Origin: Spirochaetota bacterium
Lineage (GTDB): Bacteria > Spirochaetota > UBA4802 > UB4802
Length of the DNA stretch: 64,000 bases
Assembly: GCA_035420565.1 (NCBI GenBank)
Contig: DAOLVF010000002.1
Location: forward strand, 5,896 to 69,895
Reading direction: 5' to 3'
How positions within the stretch are numbered: the stretch's first letter is position 1; every line of letters starts with the position of its first letter. The notes beneath the pieces were generated by a model, which saw nothing but the letters and a program-made list of their open reading frames with translations, was not told the origin of the DNA and did no database searches. A program made the position numbers and the translations under genes. Positions 1,372 through 52,122 of this stretch are shown here, one piece after another.

Positions 1372-3381
1372 ATGCCACCATTTAAAGTTATTTCATCATA
1401 TACACCTTCAGGCGACCAGGCTAACGCCATAGAACAACTGGCAGATGGGATTAACAAAGGTTTGAAGTTCCAGACGCTTCTTGGTGTCACCGGCTCGGGT
1501 AAAACCTATACCATGGCAAAGGTCATTGAGAAGATTCAAAAGCCAACCCTGGTACTGACACATAACAAAACACTGGCTGCACAACTGTACCGCGAGTTTA
1601 AAGAATTTTTCCCTGAGAATGCCGTGGAATACTTTGTATCATACTATGACTACTACCAGCCTGAGGCGTACGTAGTTTCCCAGGACTTGTATATTGAAAA
1701 AGATGCCAGCATCAACGATGAGATTGATCGCCTGCGTTTAAAAGCAACCTCATCACTGGTGGAGCGCCAGGATGTGATTATCGTGTCATCGGTTTCGTGT
1801 ATTTATGGTATTGGTAATCCCGAAAGCTTTGAAAAAAATCATATACGGCTTGCCACTGGTCATGAGGTTGACAGGCAACAGCTTTTAATGAAACTTGTTT
1901 CCATACACTATGACCGTAATGACATTGCATTTACCCGTGGAACATTCAGGGTCAGAGGCGATACCGTGGAGGTTTTCCCTGCTAATCTACAATATGCATT
2001 GCGCATTGTCTTTTTTGGCGACGAAATTGAGGCACTGTATAAAATAAATCCGTTAACCGGCAACCGGATAGAATCTATTACGCAAGCGCATATCTACCCT
2101 GCAAAGCATTATGTTTCCAGCAAGGAGGAGATGGAAGAGACAATCCGGATGATACAGATTGAGCTGGAGCATCGCATCAACGAATTTACCAGCAGTGGCA
2201 GATTGGTTGAGGCACAGCGGCTGGAAACCCGCACGCTCTATGACATAGAGATGTTGCGCACCGTGGGATATTGCAACGGCATTGAAAATTATTCACGCAT
2301 CATTGATCGCAGACAGCCCGGTCAGCCTCCGCACTGTTTGTTGCACTACTTTAAAGGCAACTACATGATGTTTGTTGACGAGTCACATGTCACCATACCG
2401 CAGGTACGGGGGATGTATGAGGGCGATAGATCCCGTAAAAGTAATCTGGTTGAATATGGATTCAGGCTTCCTTCAGCACTGGATAACCGCCCCTTACAGT
2501 TCCATGAATTTGAGACCATGATTGACAGGGTTGTGTTTGTTTCCGCAACCCCTGCAGAATATGAACTGCAAATATCAGCGCAGGTTGTTGAGCAGGTTAT
2601 ACGCCCCACCGGTTTGATAGATCCCGAAATAGAGGTGCGCCCTGCAACCGGTCAGGTTGACGACCTGATTGGCGAGATTAAAAAAAGGGTTGCGGTAAAT
2701 GAACGTATACTGGTAACCACATTGACAAAAAAGATGGCAGAAGACCTGACACAGTATCTTACCGAGGTAGGATTACGGGTTCGCTATCTGCACTCGGAGA
2801 TAGAAACCATTGAACGCGTTGAAATTATCCGCGATTTGCGGAAGGGCATATTTGATTGTCTTATTGGTATTAACCTTTTGCGCGAAGGTCTTGATATCCC
2901 CGAGGTTTCACTTGTTGCAATCCTAGATGCCGATAAGGAGGGATTTTTACGCTCAACACGCTCGCTTATACAAACATCAGGCAGAGCAGCACGCAATAGT
3001 AACGGGAAAGTCATCATGTATGCCGATACCATTACCCGATCAATGCAGGAAGCAATAGACGAAACCAGAAGGCGTCGAAAAATCCAGATGGAATTTAATA
3101 CCCTCCACAACATTACTCCAAAAAGCATTTCCAAAGAGATTGTTGACATTATTGAGCGTGAATATCATTCTGACGATGTTTTTGCCGATCTTGTATCAGA
3201 ATATGCAAATGCATATCGCACCAACAATGTTGAGCAACTGAAAATGGTACATGAGAAAATTAAACAGGACATGCTTGAAGCGGCAAACAATTTTGAATTT
3301 GAAAAAGCTGCTGTTTTGCGAGACCAGATGTTTGATATAGAAAAGAAGATCGATATAGTGAGTAAAGCATCCGGGCGATAG
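1372..3381 (+). CDS. uvrB: excinuclease ABC subunit B (UvrB)
   Basis: Walker [16 protein letters not shown], helicase motifs, and a C-terminal UvrB/UvrC interaction helix ([12 protein letters not shown]). 669 aa. Confidence 0.95.
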
Positions 3382-3404
3382 ATACTATATAAGGGTATGA
3401 TACT

Positions 3405-4244
3405 ATGGAACAACCATCGTATGAGGAGCTATCTCCAATTATAACAATGGCATTACAGGAAGATATTGGCAGCGGTGATATAACAAGCCTTGCACTATTT
3501 GATGAGTACCAGTATGCCTGTGCCAGAATTTCATCAAAAAATGATGGGATATTTTGCGGAGGGTTTTTGATAGAGTATATTTATCACACTATTGATCCTG
3601 CCATTTCAGTGACGATATACTGCAATGAAGGAGCTGCAATAAAAAAAGATGATGTTGTGTGTGATATTGAAGGCAGTGTACGGGCATTACTTTCGGCTGA
3701 GCGTACCGTTCTTAACTTTTTACAGCGTACCTGTGGCATTGCAACACGGACAGCACGCCTTGTTTCACTGGTCAGTGATACACCTATAAAAATATTTGAT
3801 ACACGCAAAACAGTTCCTGGGTTTAGATTACTGGATAAATATGCCGTTTATTGCGGCGGGGGAACCAACCACCGGATGGGACTTTTTGATATGATTTTGA
3901 TTAAGGATAATCATATCAAGGCTGCAGGCGGAATACAACAGGCAGTAATGATGGTACGGCAGAAGTATGCAAACAGGTATACCATTGAGGTAGAGGTAGA
4001 AACGCTGAATCAGGTACATGAAGCGGTAGAGGCTGGTGTTGATATCATCATGCTCGACAATATGACAAAAGACAGGATTTCACTGGCATTATCCATCATC
4101 AATGGTAAGGCTAAGGTTGAAGTTTCCGGAAATATGGATGAGCATACGTTGAAAGAGATAGCTGATTTACCGGTTGACTATGTTTCAGTTGGCGCATTGA
4201 CTCATTCGGTCAAAGCATTTGATCTTACCATGCGTTTAATCTAA
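3405..4244 (+). CDS. nadC: nicotinate-nucleotide pyrophosphorylase (quinolinate phosphoribosyltransferase)
   Basis: Full-length QPRTase family similarity (ERTVLNFLQRTCGIATRTARLV ... IMLDNM ... EVSGNM). 279 aa. Confidence 0.9.
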   Translation: MEQPSYEELSPIITMALQEDIGSGDITSLALFDEYQYACARISSKNDGIFCGGFLIEYIYHTIDPAISVTIYCNEGAAIKKDDVVCDIEGSVRALLSAERTVLNFLQRTCGIATRTARLVSLVSDTPIKIFDTRKTVPGFRLLDKYAVYCGGGTNHRMGLFDMILIKDNHIKAAGGIQQAVMMVRQKYANRYTIEVEVETLNQVHEAVEAGVDIIMLDNMTKDRISLALSIINGKAKVEVSGNMDEHTLKEIADLPVDYVSVGALTHSVKAFDLTMRLI

Positions 4245-4255
4245 TAAAATCTAAT

Positions 4256-5095
4256 TTAATAGGTGTAAAATCCTCGTCCTGCTTTTCTTCCTAAATATCC
4301 TGCCTCTACATATTTTTTTAACAACGGGCACGGACGATATTTGGGATCTCCAAATCCCTTATACAGTTCATCAGTAATAGCAAGGACAACATCCAGTCCT
4401 ATCATATCAGCCAGTTGCAGCGGTCCCATGGGCAGATTCAATCCCAATGTCATAGTTTTATCGATAGTTTCAGCATTCGCCGCCCCTTCATACAGAGTAA
4501 ATATTGCTTCATTAATCATTGGCATAAGAATTCTGTTTAATACAAATCCTGGAAAATCCTTTGATTCAACAGGTGTTTTCCCCAGAGATTTAACAAAGCT
4601 TTTCACTGATTCAATGGTTTCACGAGTCGTAGCAATACCACCTACTATCTCCACCAATCGCATAACACGGGCGGGATTCATAAAATGGATCCCGACAACA
4701 TATTCAGGACGTTTAGTAGCTGCTGCAATAGTGGTAACAGACAATGATGATGTATTACTTGCTAAAATAGCCCCTGATTTGCATACAGCATCCAGCGCTT
4801 TAAATACCTCTCTCTTCAATGCAATGTCCTCGGGGATACATTCAATAATGATATCTGCATTGCGCATATCCTTTATGTTTTTATGCAATTTCAGACGTGA
4901 AATGAACTCACCACGTTTTGTTTGCTCTAAACGCTTTTCGGCAATATATCGATCAAGGCGTTTTGTTATAATTTCATAAGCAAGTTTTAACTGCGTCTCA
5001 TCAGTATCATGCACTATGACATGATAGTTATGTTCAATTGCCAGATGAGCAATATCTGTTCCCATGGTACCTGCACCTACAATTCCTACTATCAT
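4256..5095 (-). CDS. hbd: 3-hydroxybutyryl-CoA / 3-hydroxyacyl-CoA dehydrogenase
   Basis: N-terminal Rossmann motif [15 protein letters not shown] and a C-terminal 3HCDH domain. Start moved to the internal ATG at 5095 because a strong GGGAGG RBS precedes it. The longer ORF would overlap the upstream gene. Confidence 0.85.
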
Positions 5096-5105
5096 AGAAA
5101 CCTCC

Positions 5106-6071
5106 CTATACAGTGGCATTCACAATATTTCTTTGTTTACCATTGAAAAATGCATGGATGTTTGCTGCAATCTCATTAATTAAAACCTGCCGAGTTTCTT
5201 TAGAAGCCCAGGCAATATGAGGGGTTATGATGCAATGTGGCGCTTTAAGTATGGGATCATCAATGTCAGGTGGCTCTTTTTCCAGTACATCCAGTGCTGC
5301 ACCGGCAATGACATTATTGTTCAATGCCCATGCCAGATCCTTTGTATCAATGATAGGACCCCGTGCCATATTGATAAGATATGCTGTTGGTTTCATCTTC
5401 AAAATAAAATCTTTATTGATACAATGGTAGGTATAATCATTGAGTGGCATGTGGATAGTTATAAAGTCGGATAGTTTACAAAATTCATCAGCAGTATAGC
5501 GTGGTATAGAACTATCACCTGACAATGCATTGCCTCGTTTAAAAGCTATAATCCGCATCCCAAAGACAGCGGCTAACTGTGCAACACGTTTACCAATATC
5601 ACCATAGCCCATAATGCCCAATACCTTGCCAGAAATGCACATAGTAGGCCACTTTCCCATGGTAAAGATTGGTGAGTTGCTCCAGCTTCCGTCATGGGTT
5701 GCTTCGTTATAATTAATGAGATTGCATGCCAGCGACAGTATAAAGCACATGGTAAGCTCGGCAACAGATTCACGGGAATAGCCCGGAACATTTGCAACAG
5801 CAATTCCTCTGCTGTGTGCTGCCTCAATATCAATGGTATTGTATCCGGTAGCCGCCACTGCAATAAGTTTACAGTGCTCCAGACACTCTATTTCTTTACG
5901 TGTAAAAACCACCTTGTTGGTAATAATGATATCCGCAGCTTTACTACGCTCTATTACCTCTTCAGGTTTCGTTATGGAATAGGTTATCAGCCTTCCTGCT
6001 TGCGAAAGTGGTGTCAGATCAATATCGCCAAAATCAACCGTGGCAGCATCAAGAAATACTATCGTATACAC
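5106..6071 (-). CDS. D-isomer-specific 2-hydroxyacid dehydrogenase (glycerate dehydrogenase / hydroxypyruvate reductase-like)
   Basis: NAD-binding motif [16 protein letters not shown] and catalytic R/E/H spacing (MARGPIID ... ITPHIA). A probable GTG start at 6071 is preceded by GGAGGA. Confidence 0.85.
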
Positions 6072-22817: not shown

Positions 22818-22970
22818 ATACCGTGTCATTCTGAGAGACCCAGTCCCCAAGAATCTATCCTTTCATAAAAAGCAGAGATTCTTCACTTCGTTCAGAATGA
22901 CATCCCCATGCCACAGTGAGATTTTTTTCTTCGACTTCGCTCCACACAGACGGCTTCAGCTCAGAATGAT
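22818..22970. repeat. MITE-like element copy C
   Basis: ATACCGTGTCATTCTGAGAG...CCAAGAATCT...AGATTCTTCACTTCGTTCAGAATGAC...GCTCAGAATGAT. Shares its 5' module with copy A and its 3' module with the copies at 36.3 and 49.0 kb. Confidence 0.6.
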
Positions 22971-34130: not shown

Positions 34131-34290
34131 AAAATAAAAAAACGCTTACCGGAAGATCGTGTAAGCGGATACTTATTGCTATCTCATCTCCCGGAATATC
34201 TTCCGCTGGAATTGGCACCGGCTTTTCGTTCCGGTTGCCGTGGTTTCACAGGGCCAGTCCCTCTACCACTCTTGATAAGATAGTACGATT
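34131..34290 (-). promoter_or_regulatory. SAM-I (S-box) riboswitch with intrinsic terminator in the metX-metW leader
   Basis: Minus-strand sequence CUUAUCAAGAGUGGUAGAGGGACUGGCCCUGUGAAACCACGGCAACC...GGUGCCAAUUCCAGC...GAGAUGAGAUAG matches S-box P1-P4 conserved elements. It is followed by CCGCUUAC-loop-GUAAGCG plus a U7 terminator, then the RBS AAGGGGGAG and the metX ATG. Confidence 0.85.
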
Positions 34291-35973: not shown

Positions 35974-36250
35974 AACAACCCTCCTCCAAAAAAATTACAA
36001 TATCGTGGTCTATGCCATCCCTCAGTGTGTTTGTATCGGAGTGATGCATCTTCACATTGCATTTATCTATTCATAGTCATTGCACAACCTATTACATTTT
36101 GGCAAAAATATCTTTTCTCTATCAACATGATTGCCATGATAGTTTTTATCCTCGAAATAACATTACCCTATCGTTTATCATATTTGTATAACAACAGCTC
36201 AATGTTTCTTCCCCACCCAAAAGAGCATATGGCTCCTCCGAAAATAGAAG

Positions 36251-36479
36251 TATGTGCCAATGTCATCCCAGACTTTGTCCGGAATCTCTTTTTCCACATT
36301 CGTCATTCCGGGCTTGCCACGGAATTTAAATATGTAATCTTAGAGCCTGAAATGATACTGAAACCGGTTCAGAACATTATTCAGGATGACACACCCCACA
36401 TTGTTATTCTGAGGAACGCAGCCCCGAAGAATCTATTCGTTTATAAAATGACGAGATTCTTCACTTCGTTCAGAATGAC
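36251..36479. repeat. MITE-like element copy D, full-length 229 bp
   Basis: TATGTGCCAATGTCATCC...TTCAGAATGAC. The same length and termini as copy E at 48885..49113. Composed of four GTCATYC...GAATCT hairpin modules. Confidence 0.7.
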
Positions 36480-36865
36480 TATCGGTTTCGCCTCAGCATG
36501 ACGATACTATGCAATTTTCATCCCCTACGGGTAGTCCATCGACAACTATCTCATAGAAGCACTCTATTGAACACTATATGTTGTATTCCACCTTGTGTGT
36601 ATATTGTTATACCATATTCCTTTGCTATACTTTTTTATTATATTAATTCATTCTGTTATTTTCTTATTGACCATAAACAAACTGTACAATGTGTCAATCA
36701 ATTATTTTATTTCATCGCATAGTTATAACAAATAGTTCTTTAAAAATATTGCAATGTTGGTAAAAAAATTATTGAAGAAAATACAATAATAGCGTAAGTG
36801 CAATGAAGTATTATTCAATTCCAGCAATAAATGAAAAAAGTTTACAATACCATAGGATAATCCAC

Positions 36866-47706: not shown

Positions 47707-48010
47707 AGATTTTCAGGTCTCCTTTAAAAAAATTAATGTAGCCATTATCAGGGAAATACAATTTTTAACAACAAATTTATTTCTTTACTTCGATTGTATA
47801 TTGTATCATGATAATGAGTCTTTTCTTTATACTATAGCAAAATTTTTAAGCTTGATATACCCATTTTATAGTGACAATTATTGTTTATAATGAGTAATTA
47901 TTATAGTATTATATTTAACTTGCCCAATTGATAAAAAAAATCGCAATTACTTGCTAAATGCCAGATTACATGAAACAGAAAAACATCATACAATAATGTC
48001 AACAGATTTT

Positions 48011-48706
48011 CTATAGCCCTCTGATGTCACAGTAAGTGGCAAAGGTTTGGACAAATTGGCGGAACAATAATAATATTTCTTCTGGATAAGGTTTTACTCT
48101 GTGTAAGTCTTCATCCATTGTGTGATCATTGTTAAATTGCTGTAAATAATAATGGGATACCTGACCAATCTGTTCTTTAATGCTATGTAAATCTTCTAAT
48201 GTTACAAATTCTGGCACACAGGTAGTGCGCACCTCAAATTGGATATCAAAATCTTTAAGCAAACGAATAGATTCTTTGATACAATTAAACGATAACTTTG
48301 TTTTTGTTAAAAGCGAATATTTTTGAGGAGATGTCTTTATATCTATTGCAACATAATCAACAAGATTTTTTATTATAATTTTTTTTAGAATATCAGGCTG
48401 GAAACCGTTGGTATCTAATTTTATTTTCATTCCCAGCGATTTAATATTTTCAAGAAATTGCAGTATCCCTTTTGCAATCGTTGGTTCACCACCTGTCAGT
48501 ACTACCGCTCCAATGAGATGTTTTCTACTTCGTAAAAGATCAATTACTTCTTCATTTGAATAATAGTGTAGGTTACAATCATTATATGCTAATGATGGAT
48601 TATGACAATAACTACACCGCAAATTACATCCCCCGGTAAAAAGTACTGTACTAATAGCACCCGGATAATCAATGAGTGATGTTTTCTGTATACCCCGAAT
48701 ATTCAT
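48011..48706 (-). CDS. nrdG: anaerobic ribonucleoside-triphosphate reductase activating protein (radical SAM)
   Basis: DYPGAISTVLFTGGCNLRCSYCHNP (C-x3-C-x2-C) and GGEP motifs. Lies directly downstream of the nrdD pieces. Confidence 0.85.
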   Translation of the reverse strand: MNIRGIQKTSLIDYPGAISTVLFTGGCNLRCSYCHNPSLAYNDCNLHYYSNEEVIDLLRSRKHLIGAVVLTGGEPTIAKGILQFLENIKSLGMKIKLDTNGFQPDILKKIIIKNLVDYVAIDIKTSPQKYSLLTKTKLSFNCIKESIRLLKDFDIQFEVRTTCVPEFVTLEDLHSIKEQIGQVSHYYLQQFNNDHTMDEDLHRVKPYPEEILLLFRQFVQTFATYCDIRGL

Positions 48707-48860
48707 GATCTACAACCTTTAATAATTCTTTTGCCATGAATTCCTTTCTTTCATGAAACTCTTCCTGCTTGCCTTTATTCCATTGATTCACAGGTCGGAA
48801 ATAACCAACAACACGAGAATATACCTCAACAGGTATTTTCTTTTCAGTATTTCTTTGCAT
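48669..48860 (-). CDS. nrdD: stand-alone C-terminal glycyl-radical segment of class III ribonucleotide reductase (NrdD fragment)
   Basis: SRVVGYFRPVNQWNKGKQEEFHERKEF carries the NrdD glycyl-radical motif R-V-x-G-Y and the flanking conserved WN-GKQ-E residues. It has its own GGAGG RBS 8 nt upstream of the ATG. Confidence 0.7.
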   Translation of the reverse strand: MQRNTEKKIPVEVYSRVVGYFRPVNQWNKGKQEEFHERKEFMAKELLKVVDHEYSGYTENITH

Positions 48861-48884
48861 CAGAACCCCCTCCGAATATAGTTT

Positions 48885-49113
48885 TATGTGCCAATATCAT
48901 TCTGTACTTGAACAAGAATCTCTTTTGCCGCTTTTGTCAATCCTGACCTTTTCAGGAATCCAAATTTGTAACCTTATATCCTTAAATGATCCTGAAACCA
49001 GTTAAGAATATTATTCAGGATAACACACTGCACACTATCATTCTGAGAGACGCGCTCCCAGAGAATCTATTCTTCCATAAAACGAAAAGATTCTTCACTT
49101 TGTTCAGAATGAC
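48885..49113. repeat. MITE-like element copy E, full-length 229 bp, between the two nrdD pieces
   Basis: TATGTGCCAATATCATTC...TTCAGAATGAC. Collinear with copy D at 36251..36479. Confidence 0.7.
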
Positions 49114-49231
49114 AATAGTACTCCATTTTTATCACTTACCATAACTGCAATGCAGCCATCAACAATCCCTTGAAAATAAATATACAGTCAAGCAATACTC
49201 ATAAATACAATCTATTCAACAACTTATACGT

Positions 49232-51319
49232 TTACGAGACAATCCGATGGGTTGTCTCTATGGGTTTTGATAATTCTCTATCTTCTATTTCGACTTCTAT
49301 TCCAAACATCTCAAGCTCTTCTTTTGTATGTGGATAAGGACAATATGTGTGATTCCCAGGTATATATCCATGAACAGGGCAAATACTAAATGTTGGCGTA
49401 ATGGTAAAATATGGTATGTGATAGTTATAAGCTATTGATTTTACCAGTATTTTTACCATTTCCGGATCATCAATCTTCTCTCCAATAAAACAGTGAACAA
49501 CGGTACCGCCGGTAAACTTTGCTTGTAACTGATCCTGATGGTCAAGGAGATCAAATATATCGTGAGCATATCCCACCGGTGGATGGATCGAATTTGTATA
49601 ATATGGTTCATTCTTACCAGAGGTAATAATGTCCGAAAATCTATTTTTATCATGTCGTGCAAACCTATAGCTAACGCCTTCAGCAGGGGTAGCTTCAAGA
49701 TTATATAAATTGCCTGTCGCATGCTGATACATGACTATTTTACTGCGCATAAAATCCAGCACTTCCCCGGTGAAAGCTTTTCCTTCATCAGTTGTAATGT
49801 CCTGCCCTAAAAGGTTTAAACAGGCTTCATTCATACCAACAAGTCCAATTGTTGAAAAATGATTTATCCAGTACTTCTTAAATCGTTTATATACATCACG
49901 GAGATAGAATCTGGTATAGGGATAAAGATTGTTAGAAGTAAAGTTTTCTAAGACTTTTCTTTTGATCTCAAGTGAATTGCTTGCTACATCCATCAAATGT
50001 GATAAACTTGCAAGGAATTCATCCTTTGATTTAGAAAGGTATCCTAACCTTGGCATATTAATGGTTACCACACCTATACTTCCCGTTAAAGGATTAGCTC
50101 CAAAAAGCCCACCACCTCGTTTTCGCAGTTCACGATTATCAAGCCTTAATCGGCAACACATCGAGCGGGCATCATCAGGATCCATATCAGAATTTACAAA
50201 GTTTGCAAAGTATGGGATACCATATTTAGCGGTTATCTCCCATAAAAGATGTATGGAAGGATTATCCCAATCAAAATCTTTTGTGATGTTATACGTTGGT
50301 ATAGGAAATGTAAAAATTCGGTGTCGCGCATCACCCTCAAACATACATTCTGCAAAAGCAGTATTAAATATATCCATCTCTTTCTGAAATTCAGCATAGA
50401 TTGCATCCATACTTTCTCCACCAATAATGACATGTTCATTGGCAATTGAGCGAGGTACGGTCAGATCCATGGTAACATTGGTAAATGGCGTCTGGAATCC
50501 TACACGAGTTGGTATGTTCATATTAAAGATGAATTCCTGGAGACACTGCTTAACACCTGCATAATCCAGATTATCATACCGTATAAATGGCGCAAGGTAC
50601 GTATCAAAGTTTGCAAATGCCTGTGCACCGGCTGATTCCCCCTGTAATGTATAAAAAAAATTGACTATCTGCCCCAATGCGCTTCGGAAATGTTTTGCCG
50701 GCCTGCTTTCAACCTTTCCGGGAACTCCTCCAAAACCAGTTAATAATAAATCTCGCAAGTCCCAGCCTACACAGTAAGCCGACAGCAAACCTAAATCATG
50801 AAGATGCAGATCACAATTGGTATGAGCATCGCGTATCTCAGGTGGATAAATACGTTCAAGCCAGTATTTTGCAGTAATTGCAGAAGCAATATGGTTATTT
50901 AATCCCTGAAGAGAATAACTCATATTACTATTCTCATTTACCCGCCAATCTGACCTATCAAGATAATCTTCAATGAGCTGGATTCCTTCATTAAGAAGGT
51001 CTTTACTTTCTCGTATCTTTCTGTGCTGTTCACGGTAGAGGATATATGCTTTAGCTACCTTAGCATGCCCTTTCTCAATGAGCATCTTTTCAACTAAATC
51101 CTGAACATTTTCTACCGTCGGGATATGTTCATCCTTATACAATATGGATAATATATCAACAACTGATTCGGCAATATGTACTGCTGCATTCCTATCGGTA
51201 CCACCAACTGCTTTTGCTGCTTTAAAGATTGCTTCTGTGATCTTTTCAATATCAAATGGCACTATTCTGCCATCACGTTTCCTTATAAACTGAGGGGTTG
51301 TTGTTATTACATCTGACAT
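49232..51319 (-). CDS. nrdD: anaerobic ribonucleoside-triphosphate reductase, large body (ATP-cone + 10-strand barrel), lacking the glycyl-radical C-terminus
   Basis: N-terminal ATP-cone VIKRDGRIVPFDIEKI and class III RNR barrel similarity throughout. The C-terminus ends ...CPVHG...YCPYPH (zinc-ribbon remnant) with no RVxGY motif. True start at 51319; the first 42 codons of the ORF are an artefact. Confidence 0.9.
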   Translation of the reverse strand: MSDVITTTPQFIRKRDGRIVPFDIEKITEAIFKAAKAVGGTDRNAAVHIAESVVDILSILYKDEHIPTVENVQDLVEKMLIEKGHAKVAKAYILYREQHRKIRESKDLLNEGIQLIEDYLDRSDWRVNENSNMSYSLQGLNNHIASAITAKYWLERIYPPEIRDAHTNCDLHLHDLGLLSAYCVGWDLRDLLLTGFGGVPGKVESRPAKHFRSALGQIVNFFYTLQGESAGAQAFANFDTYLAPFIRYDNLDYAGVKQCLQEFIFNMNIPTRVGFQTPFTNVTMDLTVPRSIANEHVIIGGESMDAIYAEFQKEMDIFNTAFAECMFEGDARHRIFTFPIPTYNITKDFDWDNPSIHLLWEITAKYGIPYFANFVNSDMDPDDARSMCCRLRLDNRELRKRGGGLFGANPLTGSIGVVTINMPRLGYLSKSKDEFLASLSHLMDVASNSLEIKRKVLENFTSNNLYPYTRFYLRDVYKRFKKYWINHFSTIGLVGMNEACLNLLGQDITTDEGKAFTGEVLDFMRSKIVMYQHATGNLYNLEATPAEGVSYRFARHDKNRFSDIITSGKNEPYYTNSIHPPVGYAHDIFDLLDHQDQLQAKFTGGTVVHCFIGEKIDDPEMVKILVKSIAYNYHIPYFTITPTFSICPVHGYIPGNHTYCPYPHTKEELEMFGIEVEIEDRELSKPIETTHRIVS

Positions 51320-51597
51320 ATAAAGACTCCCAAAAAAGAAATAAACCAACACGATCACTGTATAGCACACAATGCGATGGTTATTATTAGCTTGATAAGA
51401 TATGTTTTTGTATATTACGTTAGAATAATAAAATAAAAAAGTCAATCATAATTATGTCACGTAACAAAAAAAAATGAAACACTAAACATATATTTATATA
51501 AATCACTATAGTATAAATATTACGCAAAAATTTAAATTGTACTTTGAGATGGTATTACCGATAGTTACACTATATTAACTACAAAGAGGTATGAAGT

Positions 51598-52122
51598 ATG
51601 GTTATAAATAAAATTCCAGCAATACTGAGCTTAATACTCTTTATGACTATAGAAATAGTATTACCTGGCATGGTTTATTCAGATGACACCACTACCTTTA
51701 ATACATTACGAATATCTTCTGAAGATATTCCTGCTGGGTTCATGTTTGGGGAAATACCACAGTTTGCAAAAAAGGTATTCCCGGAAAATCCCTGTATTGT
51801 TAGCACTGAAGGTATCCAGTTTTTAGCTGGCAAGCTTTATCCTGAGGGCAATCCATATAATATCAAAAACATGTATGTTGCAATAATGTCAGAATCATCA
51901 CGGCCATTTGGTGATGATATAGTATGTTATGTGCTCATGTTTAAGGATCAAACATCTGCTTCAAGCGAGATAAAAAAAATTCAGGAATTCTATAAATATA
52001 ATAAGGATAGGATAGTTTTGATAATAAAAGGGCAGATAGCAATTATGTTATTTGCTGATGATATAAATAATTACAAATATATTGCAGAATTAGGTAACAA
52101 ACTATCAAGCAAGCTTGATTAA
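51598..52122 (+). CDS. hypothetical exported protein
   Basis: N-terminal signal/anchor helix. No motif. Confidence 0.45.
   Translation: MVINKIPAILSLILFMTIEIVLPGMVYSDDTTTFNTLRISSEDIPAGFMFGEIPQFAKKVFPENPCIVSTEGIQFLAGKLYPEGNPYNIKNMYVAIMSESSRPFGDDIVCYVLMFKDQTSASSEIKKIQEFYKYNKDRIVLIIKGQIAIMLFADDINNYKYIAELGNKLSSKLD

Follow-up and report, generated by a model that had tools for sequence, protein, structure and literature searches.

Class III ribonucleotide reductase (RNR), the NrdD enzyme, is described as a single chain that carries its own glycyl radical; a split that is conserved within a clade and recurs in others would change this picture. In a 64,000-nucleotide stretch of the genome of a Spirochaetota bacterium (GenBank assembly GCA_035420565.1, contig DAOLVF010000002.1), hereafter the window, an nrdD gene ends before the glycyl-radical loop, and an open reading frame (ORF) of 63 aa located downstream encodes that loop. 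Is this a broken gene, or an enzyme made from two genes? We consider it likely, from sequence comparisons, that the locus encodes a heteromeric class III RNR with its radical on a small, separately made subunit, and that this arrangement evolved and is not a broken gene. An earlier note on this DNA had proposed an enzyme encoded in two pieces, and the proposal held.

The two pieces of the enzyme

All positions refer to the whole stretch, and the operon lies on the minus strand in the order nrdD body, 371-bp gap, 63-aa ORF, and nrdG. The nrdD body (core or alpha subunit, 695 aa) spans 49232..51319, from an ATG at 51319 to a TAA stop. It was identified with Pfam and NCBIfam, covering positions 1-533 of the 562 of the Pfam NRDD profile (PF13597; 598 bits, cut-off 26.2) and positions 4-653 of the 684 of NF006126 (1048 bits, cut-off 548), and also matching TIGR02487 (513 bits, cut-off 326). 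The small ORF (48669..48860, in a frame other than that of the body) resumes both profiles where the body leaves them: it matches NRDD positions 532-562 (E 4e-10), SRVVGY included, and NF006126 positions 651-683. The junction is exact in the two profiles (533/532 in Pfam and 653/651 in NF006126), confirming that the body lacks the loop and that the loop has an ORF of its own, 371 bp downstream and in another frame. No NrdD-like sequence other than these two pieces was found in the 64 kb of the window.

The body presents an NRDD barrel, a finger-loop cysteine, and an adjacent NrdG, as expected for a class III RNR. The RVxGY loop is absent from the barrel's own polypeptide, both here and in close relatives. 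The ATP-cone domain (residues 11-100, 51020..51289; PF03477, E 2e-24) was modeled with a predicted local distance difference test (pLDDT) score of 90-95. Cys388 and Cys389, in the finger loop SMCCRLRL (50153..50158), are the expected thiyl-radical site, located by alignment with fused NrdDs and by direct reading of the codons. In our alignment A5 with 55 fused NrdDs, C388 is invariant and C389 is at least 90% conserved, as are Cys183 and the NxN-flap residues E129, N130, and N132. The CC pair may resemble the thioredoxin-dependent NrdD subtype reported by Wei et al. 2014.

Near its C-terminus, the body carries a putative metal-binding hairpin, C647-x2-H650...C660-x3-H664 (49328..49381). The earlier note had read it as a degenerate zinc-ribbon remnant, a reading that has to be abandoned: the C-x2-H...C-x3-H motif is strictly kept in 120/120 homologues, aligns with the Zn-ribbon cysteines of fused NrdDs, and replaces their canonical CxxC...CxxC. 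The motif is a conserved variant of the metal site, with predicted metal binding.

Beyond the hairpin, the body tail (residues 670-695, 49235..49312) keeps a short conserved E-x-F-G-I-E-V segment, and the rest is variable among homologues and modeled as disordered. This tail is what remains of the linker where the gene broke. In a fused relative of the 'H-T-x-E-E-L' type (P0299), a continuous 14-residue linker lies between ...YYGE and MPMEIYSRVVGYY; evidently, nrdD was broken inside a pre-existing linker. The weak echo between the end of the body and the head of the small ORF (GIEVEIEDRE vs. KIPVEVYSRV), pointed out in the earlier note, turned out to be meaningless, as the residues after G-I-E-V vary freely among relatives. 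We also rejected it as a sign of duplication, given the variable tails and the presence of both segments in the single P0299 chain, where tail and head are separate elements.

The small ORF carries the essential glycine in its conserved context. Its core PVEVYSRVVGYFRPVNQWNKGKQEEFHERKEF contains Gly19 (codon 48804-48806), and the glycyl-radical loop reads PVEVYSRVVGYFRPVNQWNKGK. A search for homologues retrieved 700 matches, the best 120 of which are all free-standing proteins of 44-96 aa, and 21 positions are invariant among 42 diverse small proteins. Selection on the coding sequence is strong: the median ratio of non-synonymous to synonymous substitution rates (dN/dS) is 0.047 for the 30-codon core (426 pairs with dS 0.3-2), lower than the 0.10 of a 66-codon block at the C-terminus of the body, and the entropy of the core by codon position is 0.26, 0.14, and 1.34. 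The ORF has its own Shine-Dalgarno (SD) sequence, GGAGGGGG (48866..48873), 5 nt upstream of its ATG, in line with the ribosome-binding site reported before. Altogether, independent translation of the small piece is very probable. There is no family for this protein in NCBIfam or in PHROGs, where it showed weak C-terminal matches to phrog_487 and to two families of unknown function.

The third gene, nrdG (48011..48706, 231 aa), encodes a radical S-adenosylmethionine (SAM) activase of the NrdG2 type (TIGR02495, E 2e-60; 203 bits, cut-off 131). The first 38 nt of nrdG coincide, out of frame, with the last 38 of the small ORF, confirming another observation of the earlier note. Equivalent out-of-frame overlaps were found across 73 Spirochaetota loci: 23 nt in 41/73, 38 nt in 21/73, and 50 nt in 7/73, that is, one of these three lengths in 69 of them. 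Such an overlap suggests translational coupling of the radical peptide and its activase. Toward its C-terminus, the small protein has a conserved E-Y-x-G that coincides with the start of nrdG (M-N-I-R-G...; 48669-48706 in the window and its equivalents in the 73 loci); this conservation is probably due to the overlapping gene and not to a function of the peptide.

At the structural level, residues 160-669 of the body align to residues 100-617 of the Thermotoga maritima NrdD chain, and residues 8-42 of the small ORF to residues 610-644. We modeled body and small protein as one chain with AlphaFold2, using an alignment of the reference and 55 natural fused NrdDs in which the Gly column was verified; when rows with the body alone and rows with the small protein alone were combined, the Gly loop came out misaligned and that alignment was set aside, and the concatenated sequence without alignment reached a pLDDT of 36. 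The fused-chain model had a mean pLDDT of 88.8 and a predicted template modeling (pTM) score of 0.83, with the body confident throughout. Model residues 701-730 (small-ORF residues 6-35, with Gly19 as G714) scored 86-92, and residues 681-700 –body tail and small-ORF head– scored 44-50. The model matches the NrdD structures of P. copri, S. thermophilus, T. maritima, and T4 (E 1e-23 to 1e-30; among them 8p23, 9d3x, 4col, and 1hk8). As modeled, the break falls in a predicted disordered linker between the metal-binding hairpin and the Gly loop.

A conserved split and its possible explanations

A search with the body retrieved 8000 matches, the best 120 of which have 74-97% identity and 675-713 aa and belong to Spirochaetota where named. 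All of them end a few residues past C-P-x-x-H-x-x-E-E-L-x-x-[FY]-G-[IV]-[ED], with no Gly loop. For the genomic context, we scanned one genome per species: 80 loci, all from Spirochaetota/Leptospirales metagenome-assembled genomes (MAGs) and including a near-identical strain (DCUV01000060.1, 'Spirochaetia bacterium UBA2205'). The gene was split in 71/71 evaluable loci and fused in none, and the order body, small ORF, nrdG was found in every relative examined by genomic context. An intact single nrdD, which the earlier note had proposed to look for in close relatives, was thus not found among them; identity drops to about 61% or less before fused forms appear. These comparisons indicate that the split is ancient and conserved.

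The small protein could instead be a pure spare part that re-arms an intact NrdD encoded elsewhere, with the loop-less body inactive or serving another role. Orphan small genes in some Spirochaetota genomes and in 80/80 viral loci, described below, are in favor of this explanation, as is the fact that only 64 kb of the genome is visible. We consider it improbable for the operonic copy: the synteny of body, small ORF, and nrdG is invariant and the genes appear translationally coupled, the body is highly conserved and keeps all the catalytic and allosteric features, and the window holds no further NrdD sequence. Since the body has no loop of its own, the operonic peptide would be its sole source of the radical glycine, that is, an obligate subunit and not a spare. 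The earlier note had also suggested a likeness to GrcA/YfiD, the spare glycyl-radical proteins of pyruvate formate-lyase (PFL). The 63-aa ORF does encode a small free-standing glycyl-radical-loop protein with its own SD and ATG. However, its sole Pfam and NCBIfam matches are to the NrdD C-terminus, with no homology to the PFL-type Gly_radical domain, and its partner has no built-in loop. Thus, the likeness is partial for the operonic copy, which looks obligate. The orphan and phage copies do look autonomous and exchangeable, and they might serve other cores.

Recoding –frameshifting, read-through, or bypass joining both ORFs into one NrdD chain– is very improbable. A few loci (e.g., L006) do have the small ORF in frame and immediately past the body stop, and phages offer known cases of bypassing and of split RNR genes. 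However, the spacers measure 16-185 bp in other species and 369-371 bp in the lineage of the window, they frequently contain additional stops, and all three relative frames (0, 1, and 2) and all three stop codons (TAA, TAG, and TGA) occur across the 71 loci. Nearly all the small ORFs have an ATG start and, before it, an SD-like run of purines. Besides, the spacer has 371 bp in the window and 369 bp in the approximately 97%-identical UBA2205-type contigs (L003, L004, and L007), and these 2 bp change the relative frame of the ORFs between near-identical strains. No Rfam element was found in the gap. Selenocysteine read-through was considered separately and is unlikely, as the body stop is TAA in the window and TAA or TAG in most relatives.

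The possibility of a pseudogene or an assembly error, in which an intact nrdD was interrupted by the mobile element, by a frameshift, or by a sequencing error and its pieces are now decaying, is what a dispersed repeat in the gap and two pieces in different frames would first suggest. It is effectively refuted, and we give it hardly any credit. The 71/71 species-level genomes and all 120 nearest homologues are split, mostly without the element, and the small ORF is under strong purifying selection. Moreover, stop codons and gap lengths differ between lineages, so they do not stem from one shared error.

The repeat itself, which the earlier note had placed at 48885-49113, is present in the spacer, and blastn extends it to about 48869..49116 (~248 bp). 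A second full-length copy lies at 36235..36482 (77% identity; same orientation, plus strand). The repeat has imperfect terminal inverted repeats of about 12 nt (GTCATTCTGAAC ... GTACAGAATGAT) and an internal 77-nt hairpin module, also found alone at 22826..22902 (86% identity), and its RNA fold has moderate predicted structure (z-scores -2.6 to -3.3). It resembles a miniature inverted-repeat transposable element (MITE) in being short, non-coding, flanked by inverted repeats, and dispersed, with two full copies, one module, and weaker fragments in the 64 kb. The spacers of the closest relatives lacking the element have diverged too far to give an empty site, and no duplication of a target site could be delimited. 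A 158-aa ORF overlapping the second copy (36025-36501, plus strand) is probably spurious.

This element did not cause the split, contrary to what had been suspected. It is confined to the window's own lineage and absent from the nearest relatives (L008-L013). Among these, L008-L012 have about 90% body identity, spacers of 37-43 bp, and a GGGGG SD core already in place, and L013 has a gap of 24 bp. As the element-free relatives are already split, the element landed between the stop codon and the SD of a pre-split operon. In a gene of the phage Aeh1 nrdA type, the break would coincide with the insertion and be absent from relatives without the element; here, the same break point is seen in L008-L013 and in more than 60 further species. 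One end of the repeat (…TTCGGAGG) abuts the ancestral GGGGG and extends the SD. We also observed that the second copy (36215-36250, minus strand) likewise ends in ...TTCGGAGG, with an ATG 7 nt later, and the element may carry an outward-facing ribosome-binding site. Altogether, the repeat is a later, harmless insertion in the spacer of one lineage.

Splicing, with the spacer as an intron or the tail and head as a split intein that regenerates a single chain, has a practically nil probability: although group I introns and inteins are classically found in nrdD and many of the homologues found carry inteins, a search at E up to 5 shows no intron family in the spacer, some spacers have just 16-24 bp and leave no room for an intron, the tails (3-25 residues past GIEV) and heads (about 4-10 residues) lack both length and conservation, and a Pfam scan reveals no intein family in either ORF.

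In the two-subunit enzyme that we propose, the body would supply the ATP-cone, the barrel, the Cys388/Cys389 finger loop, and the Cys2His2 hairpin, and NrdG would take a hydrogen atom from Gly19 of the small protein. The beta-strand and Gly loop of the small protein would sit in the barrel where the C-terminus of a single-chain NrdD sits, beside Cys388/389, and the active enzyme would be a core/small-subunit heteromer made from one operon. Its benefit could be one of economy: oxygen cleavage at the glycyl radical would cost one replaceable 7-kDa peptide, and the 80-kDa core would be reusable. The assembly, the activation, and the advantage in repair are what we infer from the features observed at these loci.

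Several points weigh against this proposal. The case is wholly computational, and only 64 kb of the genome was seen, so a second intact nrdD may lie elsewhere. All the close relatives are MAGs and not cultured strains. The model was built from a fused chain with an alignment of fused homologues, so it docks the loop by construction and is no independent test of the heteromer. Finally, the oxygen-repair rationale is speculation.

Regarding transcription, a promoter and terminator scan of 47900-51600 gave no signal above shuffled expectation; this gives no evidence for separate transcription and is compatible with co-transcription of the operon, which we presume. The final codons of the nrdD body coincide with a 10-bp stem with a 3-nt loop (49236-49258); this stem is followed by a T-rich run on the plus strand, with a terminator-like score, and has no T run on the gene strand. 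Rfam was run over the entire window, over the sequence upstream of nrdD, and over the spacer with E values up to 5, and no family of any kind, introns and riboswitches included, turned up near the operon. The sole Rfam family reaching its gathering score in the 64 kb is a SAM (S-box) riboswitch at 34181-34281 on the minus strand (91.5 bits vs. a gathering score of 44.4).

Split and free-standing forms in other lineages and phages

We surveyed the wider family through the 150 best representatives, clustered at 50% identity, related to the body. The Gly loop was in the same chain in 65 of them, 66 had the full metal hairpin and ended soon after it, and 19 were fragments. Even the closest fused forms share only about 58-61% identity with the window body. 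A rough neighbor-joining tree with a parsimony count of fissions placed the loop-less state in several separate clades, and since some loop-less tips may be truncated gene calls, it supports only that statement.

Genomic context confirmed four loop-less clades, three of them in addition to that of the window. In the first (L087), a CPKC-type body with an intein is followed 62 bp downstream by a 45-aa loop ORF and then by nrdG, with nrdR upstream. In the second (L092), a 50-aa ORF lies 8 bp downstream of the body in a phage-like context. In the third, a phage-like contig (L090:2501-6523), the order is body, DUF7487, nrdG, and a 61-aa loop ORF, flanked by DnaB and MazG genes.

Inteins were a frequent feature of the survey. 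Many NrdD representatives (P0241-P0390) have 1000-1880 aa and 2-4 matched stretches, corresponding to one to three inteins, and loop-less (split) forms are among those that bear them. On contig L089, a small ORF matching the NRDD profile (1-98) lies 2.4 kb upstream of an intein-containing loop-less body (2501-5704), with several small ORFs between the two, and the contig ends right after the body.

In three Spirochaetota MAGs with a normal operon there is an additional small gene, and neither a body nor nrdG lies within 4 kb of it. We identified the neighbors of these orphans by eye from their ORF sequences, with no profile search. The first (L045:3902-4162) lies among genes read as Mu-like prophage functions, the second (L070:3944-4159) beside a putative DNA methyltransferase, and the third (L080:3959-4156) between a putative TonB-type receptor and cobalamin (CobS/CobT-like) genes.

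Relatives of the small protein are encoded in 212 stretches of IMG/VR. We assessed the context of the best 80 of them within +/-10 kb (contigs L093-L172 and L173-L246; 1.13 Mb, including about a dozen whole or nearly whole contigs). The small gene is free-standing in 80/80 of these viral loci, and its likely product has 41-80 aa in most. A hidden Markov model (HMM) of the NrdD core, which scored >800 bits on six control loci, found no match within +/-10 kb in the best 80, and no clear NrdG homologue was seen there, the longer contigs not being covered whole. One viral peptide (L093) is 82% identical to that of the window and is encoded 1.3 kb from a terminase large subunit gene (E 5e-135). A tblastn search with the small protein against GenBank phage records gave two weak matches.

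Many phage peptides (e.g., L139:1126-1596, L144, and L148) begin with MSKCG(A/E)xCEV(F/Y)SRVCGY, and so retain two cysteines that match the last part of the metal hairpin in fused NrdDs. The position of these cysteines suggests a break point other than that of the spirochaete operon.

The orphan and phage copies suggest a peptide capable of acting autonomously, as a module. We put forward tentatively, and with somewhat more doubt than belief, that the NrdD peptide may be a free, exchangeable, and consumable radical subunit, activated by NrdG, plugged into loop-less or oxygen-clipped cores, and replaced once oxygen has damaged it, and that phages may carry just this gene, for a peptide of 40-80 residues, to arm or re-arm the class III RNR of their host in the course of infection.

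Comparison with known systems

In the part of the literature that we searched, we found no description of a conserved NrdD fission or of autonomous radical peptides of the NrdD type, so that 'undescribed' is provisional. A 2026 review (PMC13450708) states that spare-part radical proteins were identified only for formate lyases. Those of pyruvate formate-lyase are GrcA/YfiD and T4 Y06I, and a 2021 paper in the Journal of Biological Chemistry speculates that others may exist. If the peptide is indeed exchangeable, no RNR was previously known to have a spare-part or auxiliary radical cofactor system, and the two-subunit class III RNR would be widespread and have evolved recurrently. In phages, the orphan peptide genes would then represent a minimal auxiliary metabolic gene of a new kind.

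Such a system would let the recognition of the Gly loop by the activase be studied separately, would show how the loop enters the barrel and how the radical moves between two polypeptides, and would test the repair of oxygen damage by subunit exchange. It also matters for annotation: pipelines name the 690-aa loop-less protein and the 60-aa peptide 'anaerobic ribonucleoside-triphosphate reductase' or 'hypothetical protein', and length-filtered RNR surveys would drop the peptide.

Among the closest known systems is the single-chain class III RNR of T4, E. coli, T. maritima, and P. copri, which shares the ATP-cone, the barrel, the finger-loop cysteines, the RVxGY motif, and the NrdG2-type activase. 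It also shares the metal hairpin before the Gly loop, with four cysteines where the window has C-x2-H...C-x3-H. A further difference is the location of the Gly loop, which is part of the catalytic chain there and of a separate 63-residue product here.

GrcA/YfiD and the phage T4 Y06I protein, which serve PFL, are likewise small free-standing loop proteins with phage-borne copies (PMC8683613). The likeness extends to a presumed activation by the cognate radical-SAM activase and to insertion into a barrel without a functional loop. Nevertheless, GrcA/YfiD has a PFL-type Gly_radical domain and is a spare, whereas the small protein here is a homologue of the NrdD C-terminus and would be obligate.

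Other RNRs are also encoded in pieces. In the split class II RNR of Pseudomonas aeruginosa, a pair of neighboring genes encodes NrdJa and NrdJb, which have to assemble (PMC9669993), and the catalytic subunit of phage Aeh1 is made from two adjacent genes, NrdA-a plus NrdA-b, described as 'genes in pieces' (PMC3653736). Phage nrdD genes interrupted by introns, inteins, or endonucleases are known as well. NrdJa/NrdJb and Aeh1 belong to other RNR classes and have other break points, whereas here the tiny fragment carries the radical cofactor itself. Furthermore, no homing endonuclease is involved in our locus, where the sole mobile element is secondary.

Finally, class I RNR shares, as an analogy only, the concept of a stable radical on a small subunit apart from the catalytic one. 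Chemistry and fold have nothing in common: its beta subunit is a ferritin-like metallo-protein that relies on long-range radical transfer to alpha, whereas here the radical would be held by a peptide loop beside the active-site cysteine.

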